From IMG/VR virus record IMGVR_UViG_2654587674_000003: a DNA stretch of 64,000 nt; one strand, 5' to 3'. The position numbers were made by a program, and so were the translations under genes. Positions 1,715 through 30,621 of the stretch are shown in pieces (position 1 is the first letter of the stretch; each line of letters begins with the position of its first letter). The notes under the pieces were generated by a model. The model was not told the origin of the DNA. It was given only the letters and a program-made list of their open reading frames with translations, and did not search any database. This DNA comes from a virus. Its lineage: Duplodnaviria; Heunggongvirae; Uroviricota; Caudoviricetes.

Positions 1715-2482
1715 TCACCCCATAGATATCGAGGTTTCGGTAATAATACGTTTTGCGTCCAACTCCCATGCTGTGATCACGTCTGCAATCACACTTATCG
1801 GCGCTTGTGTGGCATAAATACGCTCTTCTCCAATTGGTGCTGAAACATCCGTAAAGCCGACTTCTTTGGCATCCTGTATCGAGCAAATCAGCGGGACCGG
1901 GACACGAACAAGGTGAGTGGTTGCTTCAAATTGTGTACCTGTCATCAGGCGAAGCCGTGCGCCCAGCGAATTACACATCAGACTCATGGTCGCTTTATCA
2001 GTTGCCATTAACGTAACGTCATACGTCAGAATGGCCTGGGTGTATTCCAGTTCTGCTAAAGGCATTCCGGTATCCGGTTCGCAAAAACTGGCTACTTTTT
2101 TGCGGTCAATCTGCTGATCATCGTTGATATAATTGATATCCATAGTGCGTGAGATATTGACCAGGGGGAGAGCATCCCGGTTAATGTTCTGGTTTTCAGG
2201 TTTTCTCCCTTGCCCGGCATTTGCGCGACGAACTGCTTTAAGAAACTCGATCGCATTGTCGAAACGGGCCACATAGACACGCTCTGCTGGTGGACGATTC
2301 AGGAATGACGCAAAGCGTTTTTCTTCCGGCGCGGGGGCCACCAGTAAGATATCAGAAAAAATGTTGCTGATTAGCGTCGCAAACGCGTTATCCACGTTTT
2401 CAAAGCCCGTGGTCTGGAATTTTCCTGTGCGTGAGGTTTGCCATTCACCTGTTCGCGCCAGGAGGGTTTTATTTGAAGTCAT
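1715..2482 (-). CDS. phage structural-module protein, function unknown
   Basis: 255-aa ORF in the same co-oriented block; position only. Confidence 0.3.
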   Translation of the reverse strand: MTSNKTLLARTGEWQTSRTGKFQTTGFENVDNAFATLISNIFSDILLVAPAPEEKRFASFLNRPPAERVYVARFDNAIEFLKAVRRANAGQGRKPENQNINRDALPLVNISRTMDINYINDDQQIDRKKVASFCEPDTGMPLAELEYTQAILTYDVTLMATDKATMSLMCNSLGARLRLMTGTQFEATTHLVRVPVPLICSIQDAKEVGFTDVSAPIGEERIYATQAPISVIADVITAWELDAKRIITETSISMG

Positions 2483-3282
2483 TCGATCACTCCGTTTTGA
2501 GTCGTATCAAAATTCCTGGCAGGTATGCAGTAGTAAAGCGAACCAACATGCTGTGTGCCGTAGCTAAAAATACGGTGCACGTACCACCAGCGGCGCGCTA
2601 CGCCGTTTACCATCTCTTCATTCCATTCAAGAATTGAGCCGACGGGGACGTTATTTGCTGCAATACGCAGAATCAGAACATCATCGGTTAAGCCATCCTG
2701 CTCACCGTCTGCGTCAATCGCATGGAAAGAGTCACGCCCGTCAGGGTTATCCAGCACATAAACGATTTCAGGTTCCTGGTAAGTCAGTTCGCGTTGGTTG
2801 TTATCCAGTTCAGTGAATGACTCTTCTCCTGTTTCGTCGCTGACTACCCCATATGTGCCAACATCTGGTCGATATAAGAGAGCCTGAAACGCGTCTGGGC
2901 TGGATTCAATAATCAGCATCCAGTCTGCGCGGATTTGGTCGTTAAAGGCTTTATGCCCGTTATAGCGTGCTTTTAACTGTGGAGTCGGTTCTCTGCCAGC
3001 CAGGGAAGATGGAAGTATGGCTATATCTGATTCGCCAGCATCCGGAGTAAGGCCACCGTTGCTATCAGCAAAATTATCATGGCTATCAGCTTTGGCGGCG
3101 GGTTGCTCTTCCAGAATGCTGAATGAATCCGAACCGGTATTGCCATGTTCCGGCGCGCCTCCTGCATTCGCTTCAATCGGCGCTGGCGTTTCTCTCTGCG
3201 TGCTGTCATGTTCTGACTCCTTACTTGCCAGGTTTGCATCGTCAGCAAACCATTCGTCAAAACGGCCCATAAGCATCCTCAA
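2479..3282 (-). CDS. acidic phage protein, function unknown
   Basis: 267-aa ORF with a very acidic N-terminal half; overlaps the downstream gene by 4 nt. Confidence 0.3.
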   Translation of the reverse strand: MRMLMGRFDEWFADDANLASKESEHDSTQRETPAPIEANAGGAPEHGNTGSDSFSILEEQPAAKADSHDNFADSNGGLTPDAGESDIAILPSSLAGREPTPQLKARYNGHKAFNDQIRADWMLIIESSPDAFQALLYRPDVGTYGVVSDETGEESFTELDNNQRELTYQEPEIVYVLDNPDGRDSFHAIDADGEQDGLTDDVLILRIAANNVPVGSILEWNEEMVNGVARRWWYVHRIFSYGTQHVGSLYYCIPARNFDTTQNGVIE

Positions 3283-3432
3283 AGGTCGATCTGTCAGGTA
3301 TCGAAAGGAAGATTTTCGGGAGATTGTGATTTTGGATGAAGGAGGGGGAATTCATAAAATGCACTTGCGCACAGTGCAACGGTGCGCTATAGTTATGGCA
3401 TTCGGTAATCATCACGGAGGATCAAATGACTA

Positions 3433-3735
3433 ATGACCAAAAAAATTAACATAAAGGATTTCAGGGATGCGTGGCTTGATGATTTTTTTGAATTTTCAAC
3501 ACCACATAGAAAGATACCTCCTGATATTCATATGACATTGTCACGGAAGTTGGACATTATCAATGCCGCAACTACCTGTAAGGATTTAAGATCACCACCA
3601 GGTAATCGGTATGAGGAACTGTCAGGGAAGCTAAATGGCTATTCATCAGTAAGGGTGAATAAGCAATATAGGTTAATTTTTAAGTGGGTTAACGGAAAGG
3701 CCGAGGACTTGTATCTCGACCCTCACAAATACTAA
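3433..3735 (+). CDS. higB: HigB-family toxin (RelE/ParE fold, plasmid maintenance killer)
   Basis: 100-aa ORF; C-terminal YSSVRVNKQYRLIFKW..GKAEDLYLDPHKY resembles the HigB motif as recalled; toxin-first order with an adjacent HTH antitoxin. Confidence 0.7.
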   Translation: MTKKINIKDFRDAWLDDFFEFSTPHRKIPPDIHMTLSRKLDIINAATTCKDLRSPPGNRYEELSGKLNGYSSVRVNKQYRLIFKWVNGKAEDLYLDPHKY

Positions 3736-3805
3736 AACAGATACCCGGTTACGGACCGGGTTCTGACCAGAGTCCACTTAATACGCACGCTAGTAAGGGC
3801 AAAAA

Positions 3806-4144
3806 ATGAAACAGGCAACCAGAAAACCGACGACCGTAGGTGATATCCTGCTGTACGAATACCTGGAGCCGTTAGAGCTGAAGATCAACGAGTTAGCAGA
3901 AATACTTCATGTTCATCGTAACACCGTAAGCGCTCTTGTTAATAACAATCGTAAGCTAACGATGGATATGGCATATCGCCTGGCAAAAGCATTCGATACT
4001 TCTGTAGATTTTTGGATTAATCTTCAGACCGCAGTAGATCTGTGGGAAGTCGAAAATGATATGCGCGTCCAGGAAGAGTTAAGTCGTATCAATACTGCTG
4101 AAAAATTTATTTCTCAGCGGAACCTGAATAAAAAAGCAGCCTGA
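3806..4144 (+). CDS. higA: HigA-family antitoxin (XRE-type HTH)
   Basis: 112-aa ORF with HTH LAEILHVHRNTVSALVNNNRKLTMDMAYRLAKAF; immediately downstream of higB. Confidence 0.7.
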   Translation: MKQATRKPTTVGDILLYEYLEPLELKINELAEILHVHRNTVSALVNNNRKLTMDMAYRLAKAFDTSVDFWINLQTAVDLWEVENDMRVQEELSRINTAEKFISQRNLNKKAA

Positions 4145-4170
4145 TATAGTAAAACACATACAAAAAGCCC

Positions 4171-4197
4171 ACTTAGCAAGTGGGCTTTCCTTTGTAA
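4171..4197 (+). terminator. intrinsic terminator-like hairpin after higA
   Basis: aaagcccactt-agc-aagtgggcttt: perfect 11-bp stem followed by cctttg. Confidence 0.45.
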
Positions 4198-4200
4198 TTA

Positions 4201-4401
4201 ATGAACATTAAACCTATCCGTACAGAACAAGATTATGAGGCCGCACTGCGTGCGGTCGAACCGATGTTCGATAACGAACCGGAAATGAATACTCCGGAAG
4301 GTGATTTCTTTGAGGTTATGAGTCTTCTCATTGAGGAGTACGAGAAGAAACATTACCCAATTCAACCACCATCACCTGTTGAATCTTTTAACTATCCATA
4401 A
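4201..4401 (+). CDS. small protein resembling the N-terminal half of a HigA2/VapI-type antitoxin; possibly a truncated remnant
   Basis: 66 aa; pattern EQDYEAAL..V..MFD..PE..TPEGD..E.LIEEYEKKHYPI matches the non-HTH N-domain of such antitoxins; ORF stops where the HTH would begin, at the edge of an AT-rich insert. Confidence 0.35.
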   Translation: MNIKPIRTEQDYEAALRAVEPMFDNEPEMNTPEGDFFEVMSLLIEEYEKKHYPIQPPSPVESFNYP

Positions 4402-4422
4402 TAAAAGTAATCAGGATAAGCT

Positions 4423-5151
4423 ATGATGTCAGAAAAAGTTAAAGATAATCCGTCTATAAATGAAACAGAACTAAAATCATTTTCTGAAATAATAAAAGAT
4501 AAAATATTTAACAAGGTTTTTGCATATGTTGTCATTTCTTTTCTAATTTTTAACTGGAAGGATATTTTAATTATATTAAAGTCAAAGGACGACATCCTAT
4601 ATACATTATCTATTGTTTCTGTTGGTGGTAATGTCCCGTTCATTGATAATTGGATTGTATCCCCGTGGGTTTATCACGTTGTAATCCCATTTATTTATGG
4701 AGTATTTGCATCTGTGTTAGCTCCTGTTCTCACACTGAAGATATCTAAGCTAACAAGTAAATTATACACTGAAATAAGATATTTAGATGAAGTTGCTGAT
4801 TATGATAAAAGAATAGAATTGCAAAGAAAGAAAACAAAGTTAAATCAAGCAACCAATGACGCTAAATATTCAAAACAAATCTTAGATGAAAATGAAAATA
4901 AACTTAATGACTTGGTTACGAAACAGCGAGAAATTTGTGGCGCGATAAAACTATTGCATACTGATGTTGGCAGTATTATTGAACTATATAAAAATAAGGG
5001 GGTTAGCATTGAATCTCCGCAAGATTTATGTGATTTTATAGTCGCTATAAAAAGCACATCATTCTATAATGATGACAAGCATTTTAATAAATTGGTGTCT
5101 GATATTTCCAGTTTGTTTGATAATACTGGAATTGATCTTTCAAAAAAATGA
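4423..5151 (+). CDS. membrane protein with C-terminal coiled coil, function unknown (candidate defence or exclusion factor)
   Basis: 242-aa ORF; two predicted TM helices (VFAYVVISFLIFNW; WVYHVVIPFIYGVFASVLAPVL); coding region is strikingly AT-rich compared with flanks; own terminator. Confidence 0.5.
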   Translation: MMSEKVKDNPSINETELKSFSEIIKDKIFNKVFAYVVISFLIFNWKDILIILKSKDDILYTLSIVSVGGNVPFIDNWIVSPWVYHVVIPFIYGVFASVLAPVLTLKISKLTSKLYTEIRYLDEVADYDKRIELQRKKTKLNQATNDAKYSKQILDENENKLNDLVTKQREICGAIKLLHTDVGSIIELYKNKGVSIESPQDLCDFIVAIKSTSFYNDDKHFNKLVSDISSLFDNTGIDLSKK

Positions 5152-5157
5152 AAGCCC

Positions 5158-5197
5158 AGCATAAACTACTAGGCTATGTGTGGTTTATGCTTTTTTT
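5158..5197 (+). terminator. intrinsic terminator
   Basis: agcataaac-N16-gtttatgct stem followed by T7 run. Confidence 0.55.
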
Positions 5198-6378
5198 ACA
5201 TACTCCATGAACATTTTTTCAGCTTGTGCTGGTGGTGTTCCAGCCATGACAAGCGCATCAATGAACGCCTGCTTCTTCAGTGCGAACTGATCGGCAAGGC
5301 GTTGCTGAAGCTCCTTGTTTTTCTGTTTCTCACGTTGCAAGGCCGCTTCTTTTGCTGCCGCCCGTTTTTTCTGTGCATCTGACAACTTTCTGGCCTTGGT
5401 CAATTGGTCACGTAGTTTGTCGATCTTGCCGTTGTCCTTTGCCAGTTTTGTACTTAAAGCTGCCTGGCGCTTCTGATAGAGCCTCCATTCGCGTTTGGCG
5501 GCTTCAACGTTCGTTTTACTGCTACGATTGCGATTAAACTCCTTCTCGTCTTCTTTTGAGAAGTGTTTGGTTGTACGGCGGCGATCGTCACCAAATGCAA
5601 TTTGCGTTGCAGCCTTTTGTAGCGCACGAGCAATACTCATTTGCCAACTGGCGGACTGTAACCGCGTCATTGAGTGGATCACGTGTTTACAGGCGACGCC
5701 TTGCAGCTTCGGGTTGCGAACTTTTGGATAGGCGTATTCTTTTGGCGGTGCCAGGGCAAAGTTACCCGCAGTGGCGATGTAACGATACCAGTATTGATGA
5801 CGACCACAGTCACAATCGAAAGACACTCGCCCGGCGCACAGTGATTTAGTGATTTTGAGAGCTGATTTATCGTCTTCTGCGATGTCATCAACCATCTGAT
5901 CCCATTCTTCAAAGCGTATCCGGACGATATGGTGCTGGTGGACGGATATATCCGATGCTTCTACGCGGATATTAATCACATTGTGGCGAAGAGATACGGG
6001 TGTAGCTCTTTTGATACCAGATCCGTCATCCACGGCGTTATTTGCACGCTTAATATCGATTGCCTGGCTGGATGCCACCAGCTGGGCGTATGTGATGCCA
6101 GCCGTCTTGCTGTCATATTTTTCGCGCGTTTTACTCCGTAGCTTTTCGAAACCTTTCAGGTCGTCTCGCGTGAAGAACGTGCCGCCTTTTTTCTTCCCTA
6201 ACTTGAGAATATCTTCGGCGGATTTGTTCCTCAGTCTACCTGGCGTCAGCGTCCGGTGAGCTTGTCGGCGCTTACGGGTTTGTTCTTTCCTGATAAGGTC
6301 GAATAAACGCGTGAAGTCCTTAGAGGACAGGCCGTCAGTGATATAGCGCCCGTCCTGGTTTTTCAGGAAATCAGGCAT
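5185..6378 (-). CDS. SWIM zinc-finger protein with basic coiled-coil C-terminus, function unknown
   Basis: 397 aa; CxC-x(n)-CxH motif (FDCDCGRHQYWYRY...QGVACKHVIHSM); Lys/Arg/Gln-rich C-terminal third. Confidence 0.5.
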   Translation of the reverse strand: MPDFLKNQDGRYITDGLSSKDFTRLFDLIRKEQTRKRRQAHRTLTPGRLRNKSAEDILKLGKKKGGTFFTRDDLKGFEKLRSKTREKYDSKTAGITYAQLVASSQAIDIKRANNAVDDGSGIKRATPVSLRHNVINIRVEASDISVHQHHIVRIRFEEWDQMVDDIAEDDKSALKITKSLCAGRVSFDCDCGRHQYWYRYIATAGNFALAPPKEYAYPKVRNPKLQGVACKHVIHSMTRLQSASWQMSIARALQKAATQIAFGDDRRRTTKHFSKEDEKEFNRNRSSKTNVEAAKREWRLYQKRQAALSTKLAKDNGKIDKLRDQLTKARKLSDAQKKRAAAKEAALQREKQKNKELQQRLADQFALKKQAFIDALVMAGTPPAQAEKMFMEYVKKA

Positions 6379-28160: not shown

Positions 28161-29189
28161 TTACGAATCCATCAGGCGGCTATTAGCCCCCACAGACACG
28201 CCGCCACGGCGAAGATACCGCATAAGTGTTTCCGGTTTCTTCCAGGTTCCTTCCTGCATGATCTCCACCATAGACACCTGCTTTTCAGCCATATCAATAG
28301 CGGCCCCGACGCGTGCACTATGCCCAGTCCACGTCCGGTATCTTCCTTTGTTTGGCGTAGCATCTCTTTTATTCAGCAACACCCAGGCGTCGCTGAATAT
28401 TTTCTCCATTGCAGGTGCAGTAAGGGGCGTTGTCGTAATCCTGGCCTTATTGCTACGGTGTATCGGCGGGAACAGCACCGCGTCAGGATGTTCACGAAGC
28501 CCGGAAACATCCAGCCAGTCATTCAGCACAGCAGTAGTGCGACGGGAAAGCACCTTATCAAGCCCGGCGGCGGTCGTTATTGTCTTCGTGTGTGAAATAT
28601 GTAGCGTGACAGTGTCACCTGTTTGGTCCAGATCTCCTACACGAATACGCGAGATTTCCGACATACGCATCAGCGTATTGTATGCAACAAAGAGAAAAGC
28701 CCGGTTGCGCTGGTCCACCAGCCGTTCTGACCTGGACAGCAGGACGTCGAGCAGTTTCAGGTCGTCCCACCGCAACGGTATAGCCTGGCCTGTTCGCTCG
28801 CCTTTTTCCGTTGCCGCTTCACGCCGGATGCGCCGCATGGCCAGAGACACACTTTTATCGTCCGACAGCGGCGGGAGGCCACATTGCGAAAGCAGCATGT
28901 TAAGCATGGCATAGTGCTTATCAATGGTGGTCGAAGCCAGATCAGCATCATGCAGCTGAAGAAAATACTCGCGGGCCATCTCTGGTGAGATCGGGAACCA
29001 GGCGAGCTGGCGAGCGTGACACCATCTCGCCCAGGAGTGAAACACTAACCGGAGATCGCGCAAAGTATTCGGCGCGTAAGCCCCCTGGTCATTCATGAAC
29101 CGCATAAAGTTTTCTGCGGCCTCCTGGTACTCTTTGCCAATGTTGCGCAGAAAACCACCGGAGCTGCCAGAGATAATTAATTTACTCAT
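28161..29189 (-). CDS. dre: Cre-family tyrosine recombinase (Dre-like)
   Basis: 342 aa; VSLAMRRIRRE, NRAFLFVAYNTLMRMSEISRIRV, WTGHSARVGAAIDMA...EIMQEGTWK align with Cre catalytic core; rox-like site 150 bp upstream. Confidence 0.85.
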   Translation of the reverse strand: MSKLIISGSSGGFLRNIGKEYQEAAENFMRFMNDQGAYAPNTLRDLRLVFHSWARWCHARQLAWFPISPEMAREYFLQLHDADLASTTIDKHYAMLNMLLSQCGLPPLSDDKSVSLAMRRIRREAATEKGERTGQAIPLRWDDLKLLDVLLSRSERLVDQRNRAFLFVAYNTLMRMSEISRIRVGDLDQTGDTVTLHISHTKTITTAAGLDKVLSRRTTAVLNDWLDVSGLREHPDAVLFPPIHRSNKARITTTPLTAPAMEKIFSDAWVLLNKRDATPNKGRYRTWTGHSARVGAAIDMAEKQVSMVEIMQEGTWKKPETLMRYLRRGGVSVGANSRLMDS

Positions 29190-29341
29190 GAAACTATTTA
29201 ACCTCTATATACAGATGACGCTACGCGAAAAATATAAAAATGACAGGGTAGCTATAAGTTAATTTTCAAGATTCAAGCCTTTGATCCGAGGCACGTATTT
29301 TCAGTGATGTCAACACTGATCATCTACCCATGATTATAGCC

Positions 29342-29373
29342 TAACTTTAAATAATGCCAATTATTTAAAGTTA
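29342..29373. other. rox-like lox-type recombination site
   Basis: taactttaaataat-gcca-attatttaaagtta: perfect 14-bp inverted repeats with 4-bp spacer; arms share ATAACTT...ATA with loxP. Confidence 0.85.
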
Positions 29374-29556
29374 TAAAATGCCGATTTTTTTTAATCCATC
29401 ATAGATTGATGATGACCAGTAACACGTTGCCTTCATGGTCTTTAATTTGCGAAGTGTGGTTTCTACGGTTGGTTTTCTAAAATTGATGACAAAAAATCAC
29501 AGTTCGATCCTTTACTCACTCTGTTATTCGACATAAATTTGTCATAGTAATTTTAT

Positions 29557-29570
29557 GTTAGAAAACTAAA
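29557..29570 (+). promoter_or_regulatory. TGTTAGAAAA box
   Basis: tgttagaaaactaa 14 nt upstream of the RBS of ORF 29584. Confidence 0.4.
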
Positions 29571-29583
29571 TCGAGTAGGAATA

Positions 29584-30621
29584 ATGAGTAAGAAGTCGAT
29601 CGAGAAAGAGTACAAACGGTTCCTGCAAACCGCTGAACGGTGGAAAGAGCTGGTGGTCGCAAACTCTGTTTTCCATGATACCAGTTATGCTGGCGAGGAA
29701 TTCCGCCATGTTGCATTAACGCATGACCAAAACATATTAGAAGAAGCTGAAAAATGTCTTGCTGAATGGAAAGCCTTCGTTGACATGTGCCGCGATGCCG
29801 ACGGCAAAGCGTCGAACATTGTTGAGTCTGTATATTCTCCGATCCCATTCATCATTGAGGACACCAATCAAAGCACGCATGTCGTTGTGCAAAGCGCTAC
29901 AACAACACGTACATTTACACGTGAACAATTGCTAAAAAAATACGACAAAATCATAAAGAAAAGCCTTAAAAATAGGGTTTTTTCTCAAATCGTAGGTGAT
30001 CTTGAAGAAGAACAGCGCTTCTTTGAAGCTGAGCCTGAAGGCGAGATCTACCGGGCGCGTAAAGAGGCATATACAGATGTTGTGCTGACAACAAACATCG
30101 AAGGCAGCAATGCCCTTTCTCGCTTTAGAGTTGGCGCACATGGTGCATTGGTTTTCGCAAGACTACCGAAGACAACGATCCCCGTTGTCAATAATGTTGG
30201 TGAACGCCGGAGCATTACAATTTATTCTGGCGTCGAATCGGTACCTTGCAGCCTTCTCGGCGATTTTAACTTATATCGTGTTCGTGACCTGGAAAAACAC
30301 CAGCCAAGCTATGTTGCGAAGTCGTACATCTTAAGGAACATCGATATTCGCAATGAAAGCCTTAAGCAGAAATCCGCTAAGATGCTGGAGGATGCCGATC
30401 CGGCTATTCGCCATATCATTGAGCGTAAGATACGTACATCACGTGAAGCAATGGCAAGGCTGGATAAAATGGATCTGGAATTGTTAGACGTAATGATGGC
30501 CTCTGGAGACGACCTGACCGGCATTAAACTGAATGAAGCTCGTAAAAAATACGGCAAAGCAATCGAAGAACGTTACGGATACACATTCCCCCAAACGCAG
30601 TACGCCGCGAAGCTCTGGTAA
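29584..30621 (+). CDS. hypothetical protein at the immC-equivalent position (possible immunity repressor)
   Basis: 345 aa; between the rox site and the 3' end of pacB, convergent with pacB, where P1 carries c1; no sequence motif recognised. Confidence 0.3.
   Translation: MSKKSIEKEYKRFLQTAERWKELVVANSVFHDTSYAGEEFRHVALTHDQNILEEAEKCLAEWKAFVDMCRDADGKASNIVESVYSPIPFIIEDTNQSTHVVVQSATTTRTFTREQLLKKYDKIIKKSLKNRVFSQIVGDLEEEQRFFEAEPEGEIYRARKEAYTDVVLTTNIEGSNALSRFRVGAHGALVFARLPKTTIPVVNNVGERRSITIYSGVESVPCSLLGDFNLYRVRDLEKHQPSYVAKSYILRNIDIRNESLKQKSAKMLEDADPAIRHIIERKIRTSREAMARLDKMDLELLDVMMASGDDLTGIKLNEARKKYGKAIEERYGYTFPQTQYAAKLW

Follow-up and report, generated by a model that had tools for sequence, protein, structure and literature searches.

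Introduction

Among the membrane proteins encoded by prophage moron genes, SieB of P22 and lambda, gp15 of HK97, Imm of T4 and RexB of lambda act in superinfection exclusion or abortive infection. A second group of described systems that bears on the locus reported here is built around HigB toxins and HigA antitoxins. In HigA of the E. coli type, DNA binding resides in the C-terminal domain, while the N-terminal domain mediates dimerisation and contact with the toxin (PMC7160566). PD-lambda-2 (Vassallo et al. 2022, PMC9519451) is a three-gene defence system led by HigB-like and HigA-like genes, and in Caulobacter a membrane-associated gene, higX, is found directly downstream of higBA (PMC13384398). 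Phage D6 is a relative of P1 that has the lifestyle of a plasmid prophage. The present report concerns a stretch of 64,000 nucleotides (nt) of viral DNA (IMG/VR record IMGVR_UViG_2654587674_000003; Caudoviricetes), referred to below as the window, which by its sequence is a D6-like (P1-related) phage-plasmid. Its subject is a gene on the plus strand, at positions 4423–5151, for a protein of 242 amino acids (aa) with two hydrophobic, presumably transmembrane segments (the two-transmembrane or 2TM gene), which follows a 66-aa open reading frame (ORF) resembling one half of an antitoxin.

A preliminary description of this locus proposed that a foreign, AT-rich gene had recently been inserted there and had truncated the antitoxin gene, and that its product might be an effector of abortive infection or superinfection exclusion. 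The observations behind that proposal are confirmed by the present analysis, while its interpretation is supported only partly. On the sequences compared below, the 2TM gene is a long-standing resident of its slot and not a fresh insertion. It belongs to a rare, uncharacterised and hypervariable family of mobile-element genes, which is possibly the effector arm of a HigBA-linked module. Taken as a whole, we hold it somewhat more probable than its opposite that the locus has had the history set out below and that the gene encodes an autonomous accessory membrane protein, for which abortive infection or superinfection exclusion is the most likely role.

History of the locus

The 2-kb region that contains the gene is 100% identical to E. 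coli plasmid NZ_AP019805.1 and has matches in 117 plasmids in PLSDB, which come from E. coli, Salmonella and Shigella, measure about 90 kb and are nearly all typed as non-mobilizable; the sole phage record that matches is phage D6. In P1, the genes 26-25-7-24-6-5 are contiguous, and the gap from gene 25 to gene 7 measures 3 nt with nothing in between. Because genes 25 and 7 adjoin in P1, the block of about 1.9 kb that separates their homologues here, and which is read from the opposite strand, represents an accessory slot of D6-like and some Klebsiella P1-like elements. The preliminary description had likewise assigned the gene to the accessory part of a P1-like element.

In D6, the product of orf73 is 60% identical to the 242-aa protein when the best local alignment is taken and 56% identical when the whole proteins are compared, and orf73 lies immediately after orf72, which encodes a full-length 119-aa 'HigA family antitoxin' (HigA119). 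D6 is not alone among related P1-like genomes in carrying a 119-aa HigA at this position. We surveyed 31 loci (an ENA contig, PLSDB plasmids and 23 IMG/VR contigs), which were retrieved through the 2TM protein and classified with reference proteins; no search was made for D6-like elements whose slot is empty. Every D6-like slot that could be read holds a toxin-antitoxin (TA) part, a 119-aa HigA and a homologue of the 2TM gene. HigA119, either full-length or point-mutated, is accompanied by a 2TM homologue in the same order and in the same slot in D6 and at least 16 other loci. Since the homologue follows full-length HigA119 elsewhere, the event in the window lineage was an allele replacement and a deletion in a slot that was already occupied.

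Three states of the slot were distinguished. In type I (seven loci), a HigB of family PF09907 is followed by HigA119, a conserved GC hairpin and the 2TM gene. HigB and HigA119 are translationally coupled in this type (stop codon TAA, 3 nt, ATG, with the Shine-Dalgarno (SD) sequence GGAG), and HigA119 is intact in seven of seven loci. Type II (D6 and eight others) begins with a HigB of family PF05015, a 112-aa HigA (HigA112) and a terminator, after which come an orphan HigA119 and the 2TM gene; two of these orphans are broken, one by a nonsense mutation at codon 69 (L023) and one by a frameshift at codon 53 (L028). Type III, which comprises the window and nine IMG/VR loci, is organised as type II with HigA119 cut to 66 aa, and it is always paired with one particular 2TM allele. 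None of the 10 type III loci read has a disrupted 66-aa ORF. This truncated form is the commonest one sequenced (about two thirds of such plasmids in PLSDB), with some 71–76 window-type records in that database, as compared with 36 that carry the helix-turn-helix (HTH) half of HigA and 24 that carry the PF09907 higB.

The junctions of the TA swap were placed by alignment at about window position 3333 and at 8–10 nt before the ATG at 4201 (window 3283–3432 and 4145–4200; L002 3865–4303; L025). The swap removed the type I promoter, the TCCCA-N3-TGGGA / GTCCCATATTGGGAC operators and the SD GGAG of higA119, whereas L002, L003 and L025, which are relatives of type I, have the PF09907 HigB, the operators and the SD. 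A tblastn search of the entire 64-kb window gave no homologue of PF09907 HigB, and a search of the window for the TCCCA-N3-TGGGA operator gave none, the single match with one mismatch being at chance level. The full-length loci also share a GC hairpin with a U-rich tract just past the higA stop codon (-16.4 kcal/mol, z -4.9), which is absent in the window.

We infer from these states that the ancestral module was HigB(PF09907)-HigA-2TM. In some lineages, another higBA pair with its terminator replaced the PF09907 higB and left HigA119 an orphan; recombination replaced the cassette carrying the 2TM gene with a different allele; and the state of the window is explained by a loss of about 200 bp, comprising the HTH half, the stop codon and the conserved hairpin. 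The orphan HigA119 decayed independently at least three times. Among the surveyed loci, no full-length HigA119 was found beside the window-type 2TM allele.

A second version of the trio was found in Klebsiella, on a P1-like contig (L029) and on IncFIB plasmids (L005), where HigB103, HigA139 and a protein of 243 aa follow one another as in E. coli. Their identity with the E. coli versions is 26%, 28% and 35–42%, respectively, and the trio of the P1-like contig is 99%, 99% and 89% identical to that of the IncFIB plasmid. To judge from this divergence within a shared order, the HigB-HigA-2TM trio is old. On the IncFIB plasmid the trio adjoins IS66 and hut genes, and in L032 another 2TM allele is located downstream of a Klebsiella-type HigA.

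Exchange of the 2TM cassette

Comparison of the window with 10 relatives by blastn delimits a variable cassette at 4383–5189 on the plus strand, near-identity ending at 4382–4391 and resuming at about 5190. The number of synonymous substitutions per site (dS) between the window and D6 is 0.00 for gene 25, 0.01 for gene 7 and 0.03 for higA codons 1–60, versus 1.16 for the 2TM gene. Among about 30 loci there are at least nine allele classes of the 2TM gene, which share 29–78% protein identity; dS between alleles exceeds 1, as against 0–0.03 in the flanks, and the adjacent structural genes are 96–100% identical while the 2TM gene is hypervariable. The ratio of nonsynonymous to synonymous divergence (dN/dS) is 0.17–0.37 in most pairs of alleles, and in two it is higher, i.e., 0.52, and 0.77 on only 12 substitutions. 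The pattern of dN/dS and dS indicates that the 2TM gene is real and constrained, and that its diversity is old and was moved by recombination, not generated in place. We therefore regard the 2TM alleles as ancient, exchanged as a cassette via conserved flanks, and held under purifying selection.

The variation is distributed along a four-part layout consisting of a variable N-tail (residues 1–22), a conserved membrane core with two segments (23–110), a variable coiled coil (111–192) and a variable C-terminal domain of two helices (193–242). Mean identity between alleles is 60% in the membrane core, 35% in the C-terminal domain, 32% in the N-tail and 27% in the coiled coil. Across 20 distant relatives, residues Y35, S39, N44, W45, S54, P89, G93 and P101 are invariant or nearly so, and all of them lie in the membrane part; N44, P89, G93 and P101 are the invariant ones in the core. 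The N-terminus of the 2TM protein in L030 looks pieced together from two allele classes, a hint that recombination may occur inside the gene, at the membrane segment that is conserved.

Sequence and predicted structure of the 242-aa protein

The 242-aa protein matches PHROG 8191 over its entire length (E value 5e-121, positions 1–242 of 242). Hydropathy analysis places its hydrophobic segments near residues 41–45 and 87–99. The AlphaFold model, which was built on 20 homologues and has a predicted local distance difference test score (pLDDT) of 74 and a predicted template modelling score (pTM) of 0.32, contains a single continuous helix of about 110 residues (81–192), whose pLDDT exceeds 90 over approximately 121–170. 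The other elements of the model are short helices at 13–28, 31–43, 45–53 and 58–67, a small hairpin at 71–79, and two short C-terminal helices. Two transmembrane helices and a long coiled coil had been named in the preliminary description. Clusters of Lys and Arg residues occur before the first and after the second hydrophobic segment, a distribution from which both termini would be cytoplasmic, and the model suggests that the protein probably oligomerises through the long helix.

The reading of the protein as a member of no recognised family also held. Searches of Pfam, NCBIfam and PADLOC with the 242-aa protein and up to 20 relatives returned only sub-threshold coiled-coil matches (BRE1, ZapB, LmuB, JetC), and a profile search of the PDB with the family gave coiled-coil noise only; none of the profile- and structure-based searches gave an annotated family. 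No profile or fold similarity was found to SieB or to other membrane families of superinfection exclusion or abortive infection in Pfam and PADLOC, and literature searches retrieved no paper characterising the gene.

The ATG of the 2TM gene is preceded at a distance of 6 nt by what reads as an SD sequence, AGGA, at 4413–4416 on the plus strand. The spacer between the 66-aa ORF and the 242-aa ORF measures 21 nt, compared with 60–63 nt in other alleles, where it contains the conserved GC hairpin that the window lacks. Downstream of the gene, at 5158–5198 on the plus strand, there is a hairpin followed by U7, with a 12-bp stem (5158–5191) and a 10-nt loop, which extends into the 3' end of gene 25, the convergent neighbour, and is plausible as an intrinsic terminator. 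The preliminary description had called this terminator strong. The hairpin and its U-tract are present, but the structure is weaker than that, folding with -15.9 kcal/mol (z -2.3), and 6 of 200 shuffled sequences fold as well; owing to the length of its loop, 10 nt, it was missed in the plus-strand terminator scan. On the minus strand, a smaller hairpin and a T-run are found at 5175–5153.

Distribution of the family and base composition

A word-indexed search of 5.8 billion proteins yielded seven clusters, an exhaustive search of 1.84 billion representatives with a hidden Markov model yielded only 50 sequences at an E value of at most 1e-3, and a search of 185,579 GTDB representative genomes with a 9-sequence alignment yielded one 2TM locus. 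All named members are annotated 'hypothetical protein' and come from E. coli, Klebsiella, Citrobacter, Salmonella and Enterobacter, with the exception of one partial sequence from a metagenome that is labelled Enterococcus faecalis. PHROG 8191 is matched by 20 of 20 aligned relatives, with weaker links to PHROGs 13369 and 4780, and none of these three PHROGs carries an assigned function. The family is thus far tiny and, where an organism is named, confined so far to mobile elements of Enterobacterales.

Within these elements the surroundings of the gene differ. In P2-like prophages of Klebsiella pneumoniae (L033–L035, 4001–4651), a 216-aa member stands alone on the opposite strand between gpV (baseplate spike) and gpS (tail completion), in a position that we take to be the site of the non-essential orf30 in P2. 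This appears to be a second, independent moron site of the family in a tail region. In plasmid-like contigs of about 95 kb from Citrobacter and Salmonella (L039–L041, 2781–4714), a 237-aa member comes directly after a TacA-TacT pair with a GNAT toxin, which is the third different TA family to be found immediately upstream of a 2TM homologue. A lambdoid prophage carries a homologue in its nin/replication region, and an Enterobacter chromosome carries another; like the member in the P2-like prophages, these two stand alone on the opposite strand. Further homologues are located in islands that contain DUF4942, H-NS or WYL genes. In the P1-like Cronobacter phage JK004 (L046, 1028–1755), the Klebsiella-type HigB103-HigA139 pair is not followed by a 2TM gene and occupies another slot, which lies upstream of the mat/26 region.

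The composition of the gene is as extreme as the preliminary description had judged from the letters. Its GC content is 0.291 and that of its third codon positions 0.230, against 0.482 for the window, and it constitutes the lowest-GC stretch of 729 bp in the 64 kb (z -5.4; 0.02% of stretches of this length are as low). The GC content of every family member is, however, below that of its surroundings by 5–22 points, including the member on a Klebsiella plasmid of 53% GC. As the alleles are saturated at synonymous sites and nevertheless all low in GC, this composition does not date a recent arrival. Low GC would instead be a long-maintained trait of the family and no timestamp. The second-lowest GC trough of the window is found at 29165–29956, with a GC content of 0.38.

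The 66-aa ORF

The ORF at 4201–4401 on the plus strand comprises about 61 native codons and a short novel tail, and its DNA is identical to that of D6 orf72 as far as about 4382. The two diverge after codon ~61, and the stop codon follows five codons on. In the full-length 119-aa relative, Pfam domain HTH_3 occupies residues 63–115, so that the 66-aa ORF stops where the HTH domain would begin. That the ORF is the N-terminal half of an antitoxin, ending at the HTH, had been correctly read from the letters. The assignment of the fragment to the HigA2/VapI type did not hold: the 119-aa relative aligns over both domains with the E. coli K-12 and Shigella HigA structures (PDB: 5IFG_B and 5YCL_A; E value 8e-8). 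The ORF itself matches PADLOC model PD-Lambda-2_B over positions 1–65 (E value 2.5e-16) as well as PHROG 1373 (E value 8e-19) and PHROG 10398, and it gave no match in Pfam, the HTH segment being deleted in the window. We identify it, from these alignments, as the N-terminal toxin-binding and dimerisation domain of a HigA of the E. coli K-12 (YgjM) type.

The ORF starts 11 nt past a terminator and has no SD sequence, the GGAG of type I having been lost. No sigma-70 promoter above chance level was found upstream of 4201 or of 4423. A junction-spanning candidate, TTGAAT-N17-TAAAAG, was rejected as a promoter on the ground that its -10 hexamer lacks the final T. Since orphan HigA119 has been broken independently in two further lineages, the 66-aa ORF is best read as a decaying remnant, the outcome of ordinary gene decay after a swap of the TA cassette. 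In the type III plasmid NZ_CP134379.1 (L047, approximately 1400–2950), an IS3-family element appears to lie between the 112-aa higA and an intact 242-aa gene, at the position of the remnant; this placement comes from gene coordinates, and the junctions were not read. The locus as a whole offers a natural series of TA displacement and orphan-antitoxin decay, leading from the intact pair to the orphan and on to nonsense mutation, frameshift or deletion, and such a series helps to annotate fragments of this kind correctly and not as novel small genes.

Proposed function

We propose that the 242-aa protein would be an accessory ('moron') protein of the inner membrane that works autonomously. The conserved membrane core would act as the effector, either by permeabilising the membrane or by blocking a membrane step of infection, and the hypervariable cytoplasmic coiled coil would, together with the C-terminal domain, set the specificity. 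The role of such a protein would most likely be abortive infection or superinfection exclusion by the lysogen. With no detectable promoter directly upstream, the gene would probably be expressed by read-through of transcripts that start in the higBA promoter region, and we speculate that the loss of the attenuator-like hairpin and a better SD in the window allele may raise expression. The low GC of the gene by itself also makes silencing by H-NS conceivable. A role in exclusion or abortive infection is plausible, and the population signature and the moron placement fit those of conflict genes: the alleles in the slot are ancient and are swapped within backbones that are nearly identical, the core of the protein is conserved and its outer parts are variable, and the gene is persistently AT-rich. 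To judge from its stand-alone homologues, the 2TM gene is autonomous of HigB and of the HTH domain of HigA. In a large survey with DefenseFinder, a complete defence system of a known kind was present in just one D6-like element, which means that the 2TM cassette is not a recognised system.

Several findings weigh against this proposal. The Pfam, NCBIfam, PADLOC and PDB searches revealed no homology of the 242-aa protein to any defence or exclusion family. Topology and oligomerisation rest on the distribution of charges and on a model with the modest pLDDT and pTM given above, and the promoter searches just described gave nothing above chance upstream of the gene. The gene is damaged in some D6-like loci, by a frameshift in L027 (3811–4634), by a cut to 147 aa in L030 (3977–4420) and by a shifted N-terminus in L022 (at about 3911), and many Klebsiella plasmids have insertion sequences (IS) in the homologue. 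That the gene is broken in some relatives implies that it can be lost without penalty. As for the remnant, orphan HigA119 copies among type II loci have a dN/dS of 0.05–0.10, and all three orphan truncations spare the first 53 codons or more, a pattern that three random disruptions would produce, all falling past codon 52, with p ~0.18 and which is not significant. The N-terminal domain of the remnant may conceivably retain a residual role.

The Klebsiella copies merit a separate description. On about 40 IncFIB plasmids, the 2TM homologue after HigB103-HigA139 is interrupted; the insertion itself was read only in L006 (3950–5743), near which ISKpn26 is annotated. The other interrupted copies mostly end at about residue 173 beside an annotated IS903B, and the intact form is present in NZ_CP069846.1. 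This suggests that the gene is dispensable or costly on Klebsiella IncFIB plasmids.

A further proposal is put forward tentatively, and we would sooner expect it to fail than to hold. PHROG 8191 and its relatives may form a new class of membrane immunity effector, in which the core would kill the cell or block infection, the variable coiled coil and C-terminal domain would recognise phages, and frequency-dependent selection would maintain ancient alleles, which would be shuffled in the form of cassettes, the whole having originally been wired to HigBA as a three-gene system. If this were true, the effector would be the 'missing' defence cargo of the D6-like phage-plasmids, which are nearly defenceless according to finders of known systems. 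An effector of exclusion or abortive infection would add a new protein family to phage-defence catalogues and may help to explain competition between phage-plasmids; in clinical E. coli, Salmonella and Shigella, phage-plasmids of the D6-like and P1-like kinds are frequently met.

Alternative explanations

The main rival holds that the 2TM protein is the third part, effector or accessory, of a tripartite HigB-HigA-2TM system resembling PD-lambda-2; the window, having neither HigB nor the HTH domain, would then carry a degenerate copy that is possibly non-functional or re-wired. The recurrence of one gene order in two very divergent versions, at the identities listed above, is what such a system would leave behind, and on Klebsiella IncFIB plasmids the trio forms one block with an IS66 element on one side. 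Type I HigB matches PADLOC model PD-Lambda-2_A (E value 1e-41) and HigA119 matches PD-Lambda-2_B over 1–119 (E value 4e-43), defence by PD-lambda-2 needs its third gene (PMC9519451), and the conserved hairpin joins higA to the 2TM gene in all full-length loci. However, the peptidase domain of PD-lambda-2B is missing from HigA119, which matches no more than 119 of the 402 profile positions, and the 2TM protein is unlike PD-lambda-2C or any PADLOC model. Moreover, the 2TM gene has stayed intact and under purifying selection on about 70 plasmids after the loss of HigB and the HTH domain, stand-alone homologues exist, the Klebsiella-type HigBA of phage JK004 does without it, and HigX of Caulobacter provides a precedent for an independent membrane-associated gene downstream of higBA (PMC13384398). 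On balance we consider a tripartite system unlikely, if still deserving of attention. A role of the 2TM protein as the toxin of a TA pair, with the HigA N-terminal domain as its antitoxin, was rejected on orientation and absence from P1 and in view of the stand-alone homologues in the Enterobacter chromosome and the P2-like prophages, which have no small partner gene beside them, and of the plasmid that, by gene coordinates, has an IS3 element at the position of the remnant and an intact 2TM gene.

The 66-aa ORF might alternatively be a functional mini-antitoxin, either one directed as an anti-addiction factor against the PF09907 HigB of competing type I phage-plasmids or one that neutralises the 2TM protein. 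It retains exactly the toxin-binding and dimerising domain, each of the three independent truncations keeps at least 53 codons, full-length orphan copies have the low dN/dS noted above, and the ORF is intact wherever it was read in type III loci. This last point carries little weight, as the type III loci are almost identical, and the truncation pattern falls short of significance. The absence of an SD and of a promoter and the start just past a terminator speak against translation of a functional peptide; in addition, the IS3 element at the remnant's position, as placed from gene coordinates, coexists with an intact 2TM gene in one plasmid, and stand-alone 2TM homologues have no antitoxin-like gene next to them. 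A functional mini-antitoxin is accordingly improbable in our view, and an anti-addiction peptide acting against the HigB of competing phage-plasmids is retained here as a side hypothesis for the HigA N-terminal domain.

Recent insertion of a foreign AT-rich gene that destroyed the 3' half of the antitoxin gene, as the preliminary description had it, would account for the sharp break in composition, for a breakpoint of homology to D6 that falls inside the antitoxin gene at about 4382, and for the fact that the window-type allele has so far never been met beside full-length HigA119. The relatives do not bear this out. Among the loci retrieved through the 2TM protein, a 2TM homologue occupies the same site in every D6-like locus that could be read, and only P1 proper lacks the slot altogether; the homologue lies downstream of full-length HigA119 in D6 and at least 15 other loci and of HigA139 in Klebsiella, so HigA119 and the gene coexist without truncation of the former; and low GC is family-wide, persisting across alleles with dS above 1. 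The model is largely refuted, and we think it very improbable.

Least credible of all is a service of the 242-aa protein to the phage itself, be it as a lysis regulator, as a holin/antiholin-like or spanin-like protein, or as a tail or DNA-injection factor: the gene is embedded among tail and baseplate genes in P1-like and P2-like elements, and an N-terminal membrane anchor with a coiled coil superficially recalls i-spanins, but it is read from the strand opposite to that of the late genes and ends at a terminator of its own, P1 is fully functional without it, it occurs also in non-phage plasmids and a chromosome, it is hypervariable next to the nearly invariant structural genes, and it matches no holin or spanin family in Pfam. 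A holin or spanin role in particular was rejected on orientation, absence from P1 and the stand-alone homologues.

Upstream cassette and flanking genes

Upstream of the remnant there is an intact higB-higA pair closed by a terminator, as already reported in the preliminary description. The toxin gene higB, at 3433–3735 on the plus strand, encodes a RelE-like protein that matches Pfam HigB-like_toxin PF05015 over the whole profile (E value 4.4e-35). Its partner higA, at 3806–4144 on the plus strand, encodes the 112-aa antitoxin, which contains HTH_3 (E value 7e-11), is annotated 'HigA family antitoxin' in D6 and in plasmids, and is of the VapI/P. vulgaris type. The higBA promoter region contains a perfect palindrome, GCGCAC-N9-GTGCGC, at 3367–3387, which is unique in the window (0.17 chance matches expected) and which, from sequence reading, sits between the hexamers TTGCGC and TATAGT, spaced 17 nt apart in front of higB, and overlaps these likely -35 and -10 elements; it is probably the operator of the 112-aa HigA. 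The cassette is closed at 4164–4188 by a bidirectional terminator-like hairpin found in the scan of both strands (-17.9 kcal/mol, z -5.7).

The slot is bordered on the left by a homologue of P1 tail gene 7 at 2479–3282 on the minus strand, with 99–100% identity to D6 orf69 ('similar to P1 gene 7'), and on the right by a homologue of P1 tail gene 25 at 5185–6378, also on the minus strand, with 99.5% identity to D6 orf74 and 57% to P1 gp25. Inside the accessory block there are four terminator-like hairpins on the minus strand (3360–3378, 3743–3761, 4162–4190 and 5153–5175), and the block with these hairpins interrupts the late operon that is contiguous in P1. For gene 7 and the genes downstream of it to be transcribed in D6-like elements, there would have to be a new late promoter ahead of gene 7.

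Comparison with known systems

The full-length relatives of the remnant align over both domains with HigA of E. coli K-12, whose HigB-HigA pair (YgjN-YgjM; PDB: 5IFG) is, like SehAB of Salmonella, the closest described TA pair considered here. The type I loci share with these systems the toxin-first order, a PF09907 HigB, translational coupling and palindromic operators. In contrast to K-12 HigBA, the window retains only the N-terminal domain, and the cognate toxin, the promoter, the operators and the SD are gone; moreover, the HigA of the family, with 119 aa, is about 18 residues shorter at the N-terminus than that of K-12.

With PD-lambda-2 the family shares the three-gene layout led by HigB-like and HigA-like genes. 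The B component found here has no C-terminal peptidase of the ImmA/IrrE type, and the ORF of the window covers positions 1–65 of a profile of 402. The third gene is an unrelated 2TM coiled-coil protein and not a P4-antitoxin-like PD-lambda-2C; PADLOC found no match to PD-Lambda-2_C among the 242-aa protein and 19 relatives. In addition, the window has no A gene, its PF05015 HigB giving no match to PD-Lambda-2_A in PADLOC.

The 2TM effectors of CBASS, Pycsar and retron systems have two N-terminal hydrophobic segments with a conserved membrane core, as does the 242-aa protein, and one member of the family weakly matches the PADLOC model 'Effector 2TM' (E value 4e-4 to 7e-4). That match is limited to one of 20 members, no cyclase, retron reverse transcriptase or other signal generator is encoded nearby, and the 242-aa protein has no recognisable nucleotide-binding domain.

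The higBA-higX locus of Caulobacter (PMC13384398) resembles the present one in having a membrane-associated gene directly downstream of higBA, and in both cases the TA module appears to be a later or exchangeable neighbour. HigX is, however, a transmembrane transcription factor ancestral to the alpha-proteobacteria, whereas the 242-aa protein lacks a domain for DNA binding and occurs on mobile elements only.

Lastly, the moron-encoded membrane proteins SieB, gp15, Imm and RexB have no similarity in sequence or fold to the 242-aa protein, in which alone a long cytoplasmic coiled coil and a C-terminal domain are found. What the 242-aa gene has in common with this group is that it encodes a small, predicted inner-membrane protein of a temperate element, from the opposite strand within a block of structural genes; that it has its own terminator and is AT-rich; and that it varies between phages which are otherwise nearly identical.

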